DNA from: Candidatus Bathyarchaeota archaeon
GTDB taxonomy: Archaea; Thermoproteota; Bathyarchaeia; 40CM-2-53-6
NCBI GenBank assembly: GCA_963706285.1
Contig: CAVPLU010000005.1
Location: 1 to 14,536, forward strand
DNA length: 14,536 nucleotides
Direction of reading: 5' to 3'
In this document: positions 6,343 to 14,536 of the stretch, piece by piece
How the letters are laid out: every line of letters starts with the position of its first letter
Position numbering within the stretch: position 1 is the first letter of the stretch
Notes under the pieces: generated by a model
What the model saw: the letters and a program-made list of their open reading frames with translations, nothing else
The model's database searches: none
What the model was told of the DNA's origin: nothing
Position numbers and translations under genes: made by a program

Positions 6343-6542
6343 GTTGCTCGGGACCCCGCTCGGCCGATCCACCCACCGGAAACATCGATCCCGACCAACC
6401 GCTTGGGAGCCATGCGTATCACACTGTATCCAAGGAAGGCTAGACTAGGGATAATCTGCTCGACAGAGGGTCTCGCAGAGTCGCGCCTAGATAAATTCCG
6501 AAAGAATGGGAAGTGCATCCTGCTTGGATAACGCAATTGGGC
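6343..6542 (-). ncRNA. Candidate structured ncRNA with two long hairpins, class unknown
   Basis: Pairings 6427-6434/6523-6530, 6445-6449/6486-6490, 6455-6459/6475-6479 and 6343-6355/6387-6399. In the second hairpin, mismatches become G-U pairs on the minus strand. Confidence 0.4.
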
Positions 6543-6649
6543 TATGCTTCTCTGTCTTAGTTAGAAATGTTAATGTCGGTTCTTCTGCAGAACATCGGGA
6601 GGCTATTTATTACGCGGGCCTCTGGATATTTCCAAGTTAGTCGAAGGCG

Positions 6650-7189
6650 TTGGATAGGTTGACGCAGCAACGCCGAGCGTGGACCTTGTACGATGACGTG
6701 AGTAACAGGGTGGTTCACCTTCGGGCGGGAACCCTGCTTCTGGCACGTCGCGATATGATTCTGTTGACCGGAGAAAAAGTCGCAAGGCAGCTATTGTTCA
6801 GACTCGGAATAAGCCTAGGCCGCACTAGCCTTGAAGGGTTCGAAGGCAAAGATGCCCACGAAGAGGACTTCTGGAGTTACATCGAGAATCTGTTTCAAAT
6901 GAATGGTTGGGGCCACATCCTCGACCACAAGAACGGCGGGAGCGAGGACAAGCTATCCTTCAGCATCACTCTGGAGGATTCTGCTCTTGCCGAGGGCGGT
7001 ACAGCAGAGGATATTGCGCCGGTCTGCGACCTTTTTCGGGGAATCCTCACCGGCCAACTGAGTCGCTTCTTTGATAGGCGCATCCTAGACGCTAGTGAAT
7101 CTCAATGTTTGGTTTCGGGGGCAGGATGTTGTGAGTTTGTTATCAATCTTGGAATCACTCTTGAGGACGCTTATGCGAGTGGGACGTAG
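6650..7189 (+). CDS. Stand-alone V4R (4-vinyl reductase) domain protein
   Basis: LFRLGISLG, NGWG, VCDLFRGILTG and ESQCLVSGAGCCEF match the V4R Cys/Glu pattern. TATTTATTA at 6604-6612 is a plausible TATA box. Confidence 0.85.
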   Translation: MDRLTQQRRAWTLYDDVSNRVVHLRAGTLLLARRDMILLTGEKVARQLLFRLGISLGRTSLEGFEGKDAHEEDFWSYIENLFQMNGWGHILDHKNGGSEDKLSFSITLEDSALAEGGTAEDIAPVCDLFRGILTGQLSRFFDRRILDASESQCLVSGAGCCEFVINLGITLEDAYASGT

Positions 7190-7405
7190 AACGGGAGATG
7201 GACGTTCTAGCGGCCAAGCGAGCAGTGTCTAGCCTCCTCACCGTGAGATCTGCAACTGATTCTCCCTCATTGCAGCGTTGCGACCGATCAATTGACCACT
7301 TGGACCACTGAAAATCCGTGGAACCGACAGGCATATCTCACCCGCTCGCCCGTGCCTACTTCTAGTCGCCGTAAACCAACGCCCGCAAGAGAGTGAGCTA
7401 CGCAC

Positions 7406-9318: not shown

Positions 9319-10353
9319 TTGGGAGTAGACCTAGGCGAAGTCTTGCATAAACGCAAGATACTCTTAGACGACCTATCAGGCAAGAGCCTAGCCGTCGACG
9401 CATACAATACACTGTACCAATTCCTTGCGATTATCAGGCAACCTGACGGCACACCACTGAAGGATAGACAAGGCAGAATCACGAGCCACCTCAGCGGTAT
9501 ACTGTATAGAACAGCGAACCTGGGCGAGAAAGGAATTCAACTCGTCTACGTCTTCGACGGACAACCGCCCGAAATGAAAGAGATGGAGATCAAACGTCGA
9601 CGTAGGGTCAGAGAAGAGGCGACTGTCAAGTACGAGGCGGCAATCAAGGCCGGAAGCATGGAGGATGCGAGAAAGTACGCTCAGGCCACCGCAACAGTAA
9701 AGGAATTGATGATCGAGGACTCGAAGAGGCTACTCAAAGGCCTCGGTATTCCATGGGTGCAAGCGCCTTCAGAAGGCGAAGCACAAGCAGCTTACATGGC
9801 TATGAAAGGCGATGTCTGGGCAGCAGCATCCCAAGACCATGACTCGCTCCTATTCGGAGCACCACGCATGGTGAAGAACCTCACCATATCCGGAAAAAGA
9901 AAACTACCCAACAGGCAAGCATACGTAGAGATCGAACCGGAAATGATCGAACTCGCTGAGACCCTCACCGATCTCGGTCTAACACGCGAACAACTCGTTG
10001 ACGTTGGGATACTCATTGGCACCGACTATAATCCTGATGGCGTCAAAGGAGTTGGACCCAAGACCGCACTGAAATTGGTCAGAGAGTATGGCGACATAAC
10101 AACAATTGTGAATCGAACTCCAGACATTGATCTACCTGAGAATGTCAACAGGATCAAGGAATTCTTCCTAAGACCAGACGTAAGATCTGACTACGCACTG
10201 AATTGGACGAAACCGGATGTCGAAGAGATAGTGGATTTTCTCTGCAAAGAACGGGATTTCAGCGAGGACCGCGTCAGAAAAGCTCTAGACAGAATGGAGG
10301 CAGGCTTGGCGAAACCAGCAACGAAACCCACCCTCGACCGCTACTTCGGCTAG
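9319..10353 (+). CDS. fen: Flap endonuclease 1 (FEN-1)
   Basis: MGV start, AVDAYNTLYQFLAIIRQPDG, YVFDG, APSEGEAQAA, SQDHDSLLFG, GTDYNPDGVKGVGPKTA and a PIP-like tail KPTLDRYF. Confidence 0.97.
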   Translation: MGVDLGEVLHKRKILLDDLSGKSLAVDAYNTLYQFLAIIRQPDGTPLKDRQGRITSHLSGILYRTANLGEKGIQLVYVFDGQPPEMKEMEIKRRRRVREEATVKYEAAIKAGSMEDARKYAQATATVKELMIEDSKRLLKGLGIPWVQAPSEGEAQAAYMAMKGDVWAAASQDHDSLLFGAPRMVKNLTISGKRKLPNRQAYVEIEPEMIELAETLTDLGLTREQLVDVGILIGTDYNPDGVKGVGPKTALKLVREYGDITTIVNRTPDIDLPENVNRIKEFFLRPDVRSDYALNWTKPDVEEIVDFLCKERDFSEDRVRKALDRMEAGLAKPATKPTLDRYFG

Positions 10354-10933
10354 GGAGTTCGATTTTCCAGCAGCCAGAGAATTCCGACATGATGCACGGG
10401 ACCAAACGTATGTGTGAGGTGAACATACCGGAGCATACGTATCCCCGCTTAGTCATCAAGAGAATAGAGGAGTAGCAAGAATGCTCGTATGTTGTTCTAG
10501 CGTCTAGTCCTTGCCTGTTGACCAGATTTCTGTAAACACTGTGTGGGATCAGGTGTGGGTTATGGAGTGAGTAAGAGATTATGCAGTATGTACCCATATG
10601 CGAAGTAGACTCGTTTTTCTGTGGTTTGAACTGATTAGGAGACTAGTTGACGATCTTGTGTCTAACCGCCAGTACGGTAGAACTTGCCTAGAACTTGCTC
10701 AATCACCGAGAACTGCTAGATACAACTCGTTTCGTTGTTCTAATCACGCGTCATTCTATCGGAAAACTACGCCCTCAACGGGACTAGAATCACCTTGTGG
10801 CAAGAATGAAATCTATGTGAATTGGCATAAGACAGTCTGGGCGCGCCCGTTGTTGAGAGAGATCACTATTTCGGGCTAGTAATGCAAGATCTTCTATCAC
10901 TACACAGCGCATTTTGGATTTGAGTGGCTTACT

Positions 10934-12541: not shown

Positions 12542-13298
12542 ATGCCTCGTACTTGGCTCAACGATGCTGCACTAGAGAATACCCTACACGAAACCTTCGA
12601 AGAGGCGGACAGGGAGTTCTCTGGATGGCTTCAGTCAGAGATACTTAGTAATGAGGAACGATTGACAGGAGCTTTTGTAAGAACCCTTTGTGACAAAGGG
12701 AGAAACGCTGAGAACATCCTGAAGATCGTGGGCGCACGGTCTTGTTGCCACACCGTGGCATTTTACGACGAGTTACCACGATGTAACACCCTTCAGAGGT
12801 GAAAAGACAATCGGCGCTGATATGGCATTCATCCTATCGGTAAGAGTTCCAGGATACATGGAACGCAAGAAAGCGATACTTGTCCAAGCCAAAAAGATAG
12901 CTACGCGAACCCAAAATTCGACCATAACCTATCTTAGTTCGTGGCCCATTGATCTGGAGCAAGCGAAGAGACTCCGCAGCACGACCTTTTCGTATTTCTT
13001 CCTTTACGGGCCTGAATACGATCATACCATGACCCGCGTAATACCTACAACTTCTGTGCTCGGCATTCTCAAGGCAAATAATCGCACATCTATCATACGC
13101 AAATTTCAAGCCCTACCGTCGTCGCACTCATTATCTGACTTTCTACTGTTAGACTTCATAGGATGCTGGGTAGGTGACGAGAACAAGGAGACGTTGACAA
13201 TCGCCGAGGGGAAGAACCCAGAATTTAGGATAGGACACATAATCGACATAACGGTCGCAAAAGAACCGGTGACTGACATAGAAGACGGCCAGCTCTAG
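12542..13298 (+). CDS. PD-(D/E)xK-like putative nuclease (E..GAD...QAK type), one frameshift near 12722
   Basis: ATG at 12542 follows GAGGAG. Removing one base joins ...NEERLTG...NIL to SWAHGLVATPWHFTTSYHDVTPFRGEKTIGADMAFILSV...KKAILVQAKK...SYFFLYG, about 250 aa in total. Confidence 0.7.
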
Positions 13299-14198: not shown

Positions 14199-14505
14199 GT
14201 TTCATGAACCTAGATCTGTTGCAACAATCCGACTAGACACCGGGCCCTTCAGGATTTGACTTTTGCGAACAGAAGAAACGAGACGCAAGCCATACCCACT
14301 TGCGTCGAATCTCACGGAGCCCTGTCTAGTGATTTTCCGAACCCTCATTCCCTATAGGTTTGAACATACAATGTTTGGATGCGGAGGGAATTATGACATG
14401 ACGGATGTAAACGAAAGAAGAAACATTCAGGATGAAGATTCGTCGGGAGCCGATGGTCTTCAAGGCTTTCCGAAGGAAACTGGAACGGAGCGAAGCAAAG
14501 TGGAA

Positions 14506-14533
14506 GATCGTGGGTTCAAATCCCACCCCCGTG
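14506..14533 (+). other. tRNA 3'-end-like fragment (variable loop, T-arm, acceptor-like strand); not a complete tRNA
   Basis: GATC-GTGGG-TTCAAAT-CCCAC-CCCCGTG has a perfect 5-bp T-stem and canonical T-loop. No canonical D or anticodon arm at the expected distance upstream. Confidence 0.7.
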
Positions 14534-14536
14534 CTT

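Follow-up and report, generated by a model that had tools for sequence, protein, structure and literature searches.

A tRNA-like contig end in a Bathyarchaeota genome is very probably one attachment-site junction of an element with a gene-splitting integrase

Why does an archaeal contig end in a perfect tRNA T-arm that is surrounded by hairpins rather than by the other arms of a tRNA? The DNA in question, called the window here, is the whole 14,536-nucleotide contig C5 (CAVPLU010000005.1) of a Candidatus Bathyarchaeota archaeon, known from a metagenome-assembled genome (MAG; genome G000, 2.13 Mb in 21 contigs, 89% complete, 7.5% contamination). The T-arm (GTGGG-TTCAAAT-CCCAC, 14510-14526) and the strand CCCCGTG that follows it (14527-14533) had been singled out in a sequence-only reading, which took 14282-14533 for either an undescribed tRNA-mimic RNA or repeat family, or the attachment-site (att) boundary of a tyrosine-integrase element. 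The att boundary was borne out and the tRNA-mimic RNA was not. Positions 14336-14536 are very probably the attR-type junction of an integrated mobile element, and the open reading frame (ORF) within them is then int(N), the N-terminal part of the gene of an integrase that carries att inside its own coding sequence.

The tail of the window was traced to a chromosomal tRNA gene. In a BLAST search against its own genome, 14508-14531 is identical in 24 of 24 bases to C4:5409-5386 (E 2.6e-5), the 3' end of a tRNA-Ser(GCU) gene on contig C4 (ARAGORN c[5382,5460]; T-arm 5407-5383, minus strand), and this match is more than chance. The 5' strand of this tRNA lies 85 nt before the T-arm in a T-arm scan, and the gene therefore contains an intron. 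The att core of the window (14508-14536, plus strand) consists of the T-arm and a degenerated acceptor 3' strand, in which CCCCG-TGCTT stands in place of CCCCGGCGCTT (one deletion and one substitution), and the contig stops at the last position of this att repeat. The same degenerated strand is found in the copy of genome G008, which additionally has a G53-U61 mismatch in the T-stem that breaks the G53-C61 pair; the duplicate tRNA tail thus appears to be decaying in both copies, which would be natural in a sequence that has stopped being a tRNA. Upstream of the core lies a first tRNA-derived block, AGCCGATGGTCTTC (14448-14461, plus strand), that is identical in 14 of 14 bases to C4:5428-5415; in tRNA-Ser(GCU) these bases cover position 38, the 3' strand of the anticodon stem and the beginning of the variable arm. 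The two blocks are separated by an insert (14462-14507, plus strand) that is conserved at the nucleotide level and holds the hairpin TTTCC-GAA-GGAAA (14467-14479). The earlier proposal of an att boundary was thus right in kind, and the match to the tRNA comprises two blocks rather than the last 25-30 nt only.

The tRNA-derived sequence is not the same in all copies of the family. In a genome-wide T-arm scan, the T-arm and 3' strand of each copy belong to a different real tRNA: the copies in the window, in G008 and at the start of C4 pair with tRNA-Ser, the copy at 371 kb on C4 repeats (27 nt, 89%) the end of a tRNA located 1.45 kb upstream in the same orientation, and the copy in genome G001 matches that same tRNA end in 27 of 27 bases. 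The copy at 81 kb on C4 is identical in 19+10+27 bases to a tRNA on C8 which ARAGORN calls Gly(GCC) and which we putatively read as Leu from its discriminator and variable arm. The tRNA targeted by the 371 kb and G001 copies (C4:369685-369814) is labelled "Pyl (cta)" by ARAGORN when introns are allowed, a result of a forced intron parse, and this label is probably wrong.

The second line of evidence is the reading frame. A 46-codon open frame, MTDVNERRNIQDEDSSGADGLQGFPKETGTERSKVEDRGFKSHPRA, starts at an ATG at 14398 and runs off the contig end (14398-14535, plus strand); it is predicted to encode the N-terminal segment of a tyrosine integrase whose gene is partitioned. It ends ...EDRGFKSHPRA, so that the T-arm is read as RGFKSHPR, and the same register is used by a 116-amino-acid (aa) ORF directly after tRNA-Ser on C4 (...RGFKSHPRRF..., L005:1224-1574(-)). 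This ORF is 87-88% identical over 94-95% of its own length (87% to P0001) to the intact 329-aa proteins P0001 and P0002, which carry the PF00589 domain (66.8 bits, cut-off 27.1) and match the integrase family phrog_1 (P0001: 1.7e-22). The tRNA-Ser gene is therefore followed by the start of a tyrosine integrase that lacks its C-terminal two thirds, and the same arrangement was found in G008 with an integrase remnant of 104 aa. Furthermore, the 80-aa metagenome protein P0061 is a single ORF that contains the 46-residue leader, including the att-encoded RGFKSHPR, followed by 34 integrase residues that include GLWMQKQGYR, and the metagenome proteins P0055 and P0057 are likewise contiguous across att. 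An alignment of 11 copies was made (the window, G008, G001, the 371 kb copy on C4 and seven metagenome contigs); the int(N) frame is open in 10 of them, and the nine Ser-type copies show no indel across its 138 nt.

Complete arrangements were identified elsewhere. The leader is encoded at 13 metagenome loci, and three of these are two-ended: L028 contains a complete tRNA-Ser, 2.1 kb of DNA and then a module that ends in a 31-bp exact direct repeat, CTCGTGGGTTCAAATCCCACCCCCGGCGCTT, L027 has a 31-bp direct repeat 2.8 kb apart and L037 a 30-bp direct repeat 1.46 kb apart. The att core of the window corresponds to the exact direct repeat of these three loci, (C)TCGTGGGTTCAAATCCCACCCCCGGCGCTT, of 30-31 bp, and the flank after the second repeat of L028 is also the flank after the G008 copy. 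In the window's own genome, tRNA-Ser lies 5.4 kb before a module copy with 98% identity at C4:43-3, and in G008 it lies ~4.3 kb before one with 84% identity, in both cases in the same orientation. DNA was also fetched beside six intact members of the integrase family, of which two gave complete elements. In the first (G066:C3), a 30-nt exact tRNA-3' repeat occurs 13.4 kb apart, an intact 327-aa PF00589 integrase stands at the tRNA end (attL), and at attR an ATG lies eight codons before att in the integrase register; most of its cargo is of unknown function, and directly beyond the element stands an amino-acid permease gene. In the second (G071:C10), a 35-nt repeat occurs 14.1 kb apart with the same register, and the only upstream start option is a TTG. 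In each of them, the reading frame running into the far repeat has the register of the integrase at the near repeat. Overall, an int(C) beside a tRNA together with an int(N) beside the duplicate was seen in L028, L037, G008, the start of C4, G066 and G071, and the window holds the int(N)/attR half.

The anatomy of these loci and the known SSV-type integrases suggest how the junction would have formed. The free circular element would carry a promoter, an ATG, ~37 leader codons, the tRNA-like att core and ~300 integrase codons (a core-binding domain and the PF00589 catalytic domain). Its att core would recombine with the identical 3' end of a chromosomal tRNA-Ser gene, and the element would be inserted, leaving at attL the intact tRNA fused to int(C) and at attR the promoter and int(N) fused to a duplicate tRNA tail; the window would be the attR end. 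Splitting of the integrase gene would disable excision. The sequence identities, the direct repeats, the shared register, the contiguous int(N)-att-integrase ORFs of metagenomes and the identity of the downstream integrase are directly observed. That the 46 int(N) residues belong to a functional protein is inferred from them, and recombination of attP with a tRNA attB by the full-length protein is a predicted activity. The window copy itself is probably a decaying relic, because its acceptor strand is degenerated, the int(C) at the matching tRNA-Ser is truncated (116 aa) and related loci hold only 1.5-5 kb between the repeats.

Several observations weigh against this reading. Among the nine Ser-type copies, substitutions per codon position amount to 6/17, 9/17 and 9/16, and then to 2/20, 3/20 and 4/20, which gives no third-position excess, so that these counts do not show coding constraint on the 46 residues; the variable columns number 9 of 60 in 14448-14507, spread equally over the codon positions, and 24 of 50 in 14398-14447. 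A phmmer search with P0055 against 1.84 billion representative proteins gave 12 hits, all of 60-131 aa, and a homologue search aimed at longer proteins gave four of 85-149 aa, so neither returned a full-length unsplit integrase with the leader. Those int(N)-att-integrase ORFs that are contiguous end prematurely or contain a frameshift, and in L026 int(N) and int(C) are adjacent in different frames. In G066 an in-frame GTG follows att, and P0012-type proteins start after att, so that int(C) might do without the leader. A repeat of at least 16 nt was absent from four of the six intact integrase loci within the DNA fetched (G023:C2, 40 kb; G008:C1, 20 kb; G071:C5, 6.4 kb to the contig end; G065:C42, 20 kb). 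The 14.5-kb window contains no tRNA, attL or int(C) by ARAGORN (with and without introns) and the T-arm scan, and thus does not give the attL partner or the extent of this copy's element. Finally, C5 ends at the att core while a 98% copy of the module stands at the start of C4, so it is possible that the last 200 nt of C5 are an assembly collapse of two copies. The available sequencing runs comprised three DNA runs with only parts of the stretch (shares 0.10-0.26), whose contigs do not bridge the C5 end, and no RNA run was listed.

Could the integrase instead be of the classical kind, starting after att, with att in its promoter or leader? Integration would then remove only the promoter and a non-functional upstream ORF, and the otherwise complete gene could stay expressed, for example by read-through from the tRNA gene. 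We regard this as unlikely. The upstream ORF is open and free of indels in all nine Ser-type copies, and three att types show it in the integrase register. In the Ser-type elements no start codon (ATG, GTG or TTG) occurs in frame from att to the M of GLWMQKQGY, and P0061 forms one ORF across the junction. These features speak for a leader that belongs to the integrase, and they have to be set against the missing third-position bias, the lack of any Pfam match in the 46-residue leader, the lack of a long protein that includes it, the P0012-type relatives (295 aa), which begin with MPVGDIVSFGLWMQKQGY directly after the att position, and the GTG of G066, which lies 13 nt after att and opens the 327-aa PF00589 protein. 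A scar left at the target site or end of a casposon (a Cas1-transposon) is barely credible. Cas1-like fragments do occur in the window's own genome, but the three Cas1 (PF01867) matches lie on C10 (48.9 kb and 248.7 kb) and C9 (0.5 kb) and none on C5 or near the C4 copies (0-5.5 kb, 81 kb, 371 kb), and for this reason a casposon scar is not supported. The sequence beside the repeat is, moreover, a tyrosine-integrase frame that stays in register across att. No Cas1-family casposase was found on C5; terminal inverted repeats were not searched for.

The remaining two alternatives take the T-arm for part of an RNA gene, either a stable tRNA-mimic noncoding RNA or RNA family that retains a T-arm and encloses a long insert by an acceptor-like stem, or a highly fragmented real tRNA gene that has several introns or is the 3' half of a split tRNA with a leader. 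The features that had suggested an RNA are all present: besides the perfect T-arm and the GAA hairpin, they are the stems ATGGTCTTC (14453-14461) with GAAGATCGT (14503-14511; nine pairs, two of them G-U), GACGGAT (14400-14406) with ATTCGTC (14438-14444) and GACGCAAG (14282-14289) with CTTGCGTC (14299-14306), and the heptamers CACGGAG (14313-14319) and TGCGGAG (14380-14386), for which an imperfect pairing with CCCCGTG as an acceptor-like stem had been suggested as possible. The region is hairpin-rich in that these stems exist, and its overall excess of folding is marginal: the minimum free energy of 14282-14533 (252 nt) is -76.4 kcal/mol compared with -68.7 +/- 4.6 for shuffled sequences (z -1.68); of 200 shuffles, 9 matched or surpassed its stability. 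Part of the acceptor-like pairing, CACGG (14313-14317) with CCGTG, appears in the minimum-free-energy fold, and in the 81 kb copy on C4 an upstream GCGGGA pairs with the 3' strand; these partners lie at non-homologous positions and are absent in G008, G001 and the 371 kb copy. For the window, the T-arm scan revealed no 7-bp partner of CCCCGTG within 450 nt. ARAGORN identified no tRNA or tmRNA in the window with or without introns, and Rfam had no hit at its gathering threshold and, even at E<=10, none to a tRNA or tmRNA family. In the alignment of 11 copies, stems c and a' show no compensatory change, and each has a pair that can form in only 1-2 of 10 distinct sequences. Stem d falls outside the module, and compensation was confined to one pair of the GAA hairpin. 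The module was found in 3 of 59 genomes of the family, and its copies differ in which real tRNA their T-arm and acceptor reproduce. Conservation of 14448-14507 at the nucleotide and not the codon level would suit an RNA, but with neither a covariation-backed structure nor a closing stem the tRNA-mimic is very improbable.

A fragmented tRNA gene is improbable in the extreme. Introns are near-universal in the tRNA genes of this genome: ARAGORN found three tRNA genes without introns allowed and 26 with introns, Rfam 16, and in the T-arm scan every 5' acceptor strand lies at least 63 nt before the T-arm, compared with 48 nt in an intron-free tRNA, indicating that almost all of the tRNA genes carry introns. 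Furthermore, the block AGCCGATGG... resembles the 3' half of a class II tRNA. The region itself lacks a 7-bp acceptor, no D-arm or anticodon arm can be placed, the CCCCGTG strand is a degenerated copy of the tRNA-Ser strand, the G008 copy breaks its T-stem and an intact tRNA-Ser(GCU) stands elsewhere in the genome. Manual cloverleaf parses with a D-arm GCC-GATGGTCTTCAA-GGC and an anticodon arm with an 8-nt loop, TTCCG-AAGGAAAC-TGGAA, gave no consistent tRNA across the copies, and neither did an acceptor interrupted after position 5. Reading the 41-nt insert as a bulge-helix-bulge intron likewise failed; its length cannot be divided by 3, and no splicing is needed for the frame. A search for a split-tRNA 5' half gave as its best candidate a stretch complementary to the would-be leader in 18 of 20 bases (C6:72671-72690); it lies in an apparent coding region and was rejected as chance.

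With the gene-splitting integrase as the favoured explanation, the conserved insert calls for an account of its own. Ser-type and Leu-type copies alike carry, between their variable-arm-like block and their T-arm, a hairpin with a GAA triloop whose stems and reading frames differ. In the Ser-type hairpin (14467-14479) one pair is changed from UA to CG in three sequences, and the Leu-type hairpins are CGTCC-GAA-GGACG in G071 (L068, G071:C10 attR) and G066 (L066/L067, G066:C3 attR) and GCC-GAA-GGC at C4 ~81130. We infer that 14462-14507 is part of the element-side arm of attP, and the recurring hairpin suggests an element of that arm that acts at the nucleic-acid level. The conservation of 14448-14507 at all codon positions together with the compensation in the hairpin would therefore reflect constraint on the DNA or RNA of the attP arm. 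A broader proposal, tentative and on balance rather doubtful, is that the Bathyarchaeia possess independently evolved self-splitting PF00589 integrases in which the in-gene attP is an expanded mimic of a tRNA 3' half (variable-arm block, GAA-triloop insert and T-arm), constrained as nucleic acid and not as protein, with an element-side arm that allows a switch among class II tRNA targets (Ser, Leu).

Upstream of the frame, the homology of the 11 copies begins at ~14336. This conserved upstream module (14336-14397, plus strand; 17 of 62 columns vary among the nine Ser-type copies) contains a TATA-like palindrome CCCTATAGG (14350-14358), a palindrome AACAT-ACA-ATGTT (14363-14375), ATTCCCT (14347-14353) paired with AGGGAAT (14385-14391), and GGAGGG (14383-14388) nine nt before the ATG. 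From its position it is best read as the putative promoter, operator and ribosome-binding site of the integrase gene. Upstream of ~14336, 64 of 66 alignment columns vary and the other copies carry unrelated or different sequence, which places the hairpin 14282-14306 (plus strand; helix 1, paired in only 48.8% of the alignment cells) outside the module as a feature specific to the window; a contig of metagenome run X3 likewise matches from 14341 onward and differs before. In seven copies (G008, L027, L028, L029, G001, the 371 kb copy and the start of C4), a further, conserved palindrome, ..CCGGGAT-T-ATCCCGG.., stands ~30 nt ahead of the module with TCAATCAC after it. It is absent from the window, L025, L026, L030 and L031, and may be a regulator site of the element.

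A BLAST search with 14330-14460 gave three more copies in the same genome, C4:371081-371212 (77%), C4:81238-81170 (87%) and the contig-end copy C4:43-3, in addition to those in G008, G001 and metagenome contigs. The repeat family suggested by the sequence-only reading thus exists, with four copies in its own genome, and consists of the 5' module of an integrase gene rather than of an RNA. A scan with a core-motif pattern returned only two already known relatives among genome contigs and none among viral contigs. Two further loci in the genome touch on this family. At C13:~93100-93520 (minus strand), a degraded integrase start (~93 aa) related to the C4 remnant follows a tRNA, putatively Leu by our own parse, whose acceptor is GCGGGGG/CCCCCGC and whose discriminator is A; this is a second decayed attL in the genome. 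At C10:~13150-13170 (minus strand) stands a solitary CACCCCCGGTGCTT with the G008 attR flank after it and unrelated sequence before it, which points to an additional rearrangement or to one more insertion at the tRNA-Ser hot spot.

Much of the rest of the window is a variant of another part of the genome. C5:1-10623 is 92-97% identical to C4:95483-85771, with ~0.9 kb extra in C5 at 6404-7312, and the pair could have arisen by recent duplication or represent a strain haplotype within the MAG. Their accessory DNA beyond 10623 is unrelated, and both versions end in a copy of the family, with a Ser-like att in C5 and a Leu-like att in C4. The accessory stretch of the window (10.6-14.3 kb) is a candidate for the element that belongs to its att. 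At the left edge of this stretch, after a FEN-1-like gene (9319-10353), a 130-nt intergenic repeat (82% identity) is shared between 10518-10648 of the window and C4:253672-253804. Searches of int(N) and five window ORFs (10.6-13.8 kb) against Pfam and of seven window ORFs against PHROGs gave no family, except for one sub-threshold Pfam hit.

Elements of this kind are known from other archaea. In SSV-type (type I, "suicidal") integrases, the coding sequence contains att, a copy of the 3' part of a tRNA gene. On integration the gene is broken into int(N) and int(C), which come to stand at the two ends of the element next to direct att repeats, and trapped copies that decay build up beside tRNA genes, as described in passages of PMC8371274 and PMC7253208. 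Taken together, the loci described here share these features with SSV1 and SSV2 of the Sulfolobales and pTN3 and pT26-2 of the Thermococcales, the window itself showing the int(N)/attR half. According to a passage of PMC8371274, the three known suicidal families all carry PF16795, whereas the catalytic domain of the Bathyarchaeia family matches PF00589; no PF16795 match at E<=1 was found in the window's own genome or in P0001, P0012 and P0036, which places the family outside the SSV/pTN3/pT26-2 clade by this marker. Furthermore, the predicted int(N) is short here (46 residues, ~9 of them encoded by att), the att region contains a second tRNA-derived block and a 46-nt insert, and the host is a Bathyarchaeia MAG with close DNA relatives in sediment, wetland and soil metagenome runs instead of a cultivated hyperthermophile. 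A split SSV1-like integrase has also been described (PMC6563490) in the cryptic integrated element NitEve-E3 of the Thaumarchaeota. On that description, NitEve-E3 resembles the present elements in its gene-splitting integrase and its non-hyperthermophilic archaeal lineage; it lacks viral hallmark genes, to which the cargo of G066, mostly of unknown function, can be compared, and it belongs to another lineage. Classical type II systems (pNOB8/lambda-like) also use PF00589 tyrosine recombinases, target tRNA 3' ends and leave direct repeats that flank an island, but there att lies outside the gene, which is whole after integration, whereas here the ORF runs through att in register. With intron-containing and split archaeal tRNA genes the region shares the T-arm, the 7-nt strand after it, a similarity to a class II variable arm and an intron-rich genome; it differs from them in having no acceptor partner, D-arm, anticodon arm or covariance-model hit. 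Among viral contigs of IMG/VR, the nearest integrase (L038, 45% identity) is of a Zn-ribbon type without the leader.

The mechanism is therefore already known, and the new details are the Bathyarchaeia host and the PF00589 rather than PF16795 integrase. A full-text literature search found no paper on an SSV-type integrase in Bathyarchaeota, and in the review PMC8371274 the single mention of Bathyarchaea concerns topoisomerase IB. For the window the result is mainly one of clean-up: an apparently novel tRNA-like RNA is explained by a known mechanism of archaeal mobile elements, and the same reading accounts for the break of the contig at the att repeat. For the lineage, gene-splitting integrases, described for SSV, pTN3 and pT26-2 types with PF16795 and mostly from hyperthermophiles, appear to have a PF00589-type counterpart that is common in the Bathyarchaeia, its integrase family being present in 37 out of 105 genomes of the order (E<=1e-20). 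Such elements build variable islands beside tRNA genes, which bears on the capture of accessory genes in an abundant sediment lineage and on the fragmentation of its MAGs.

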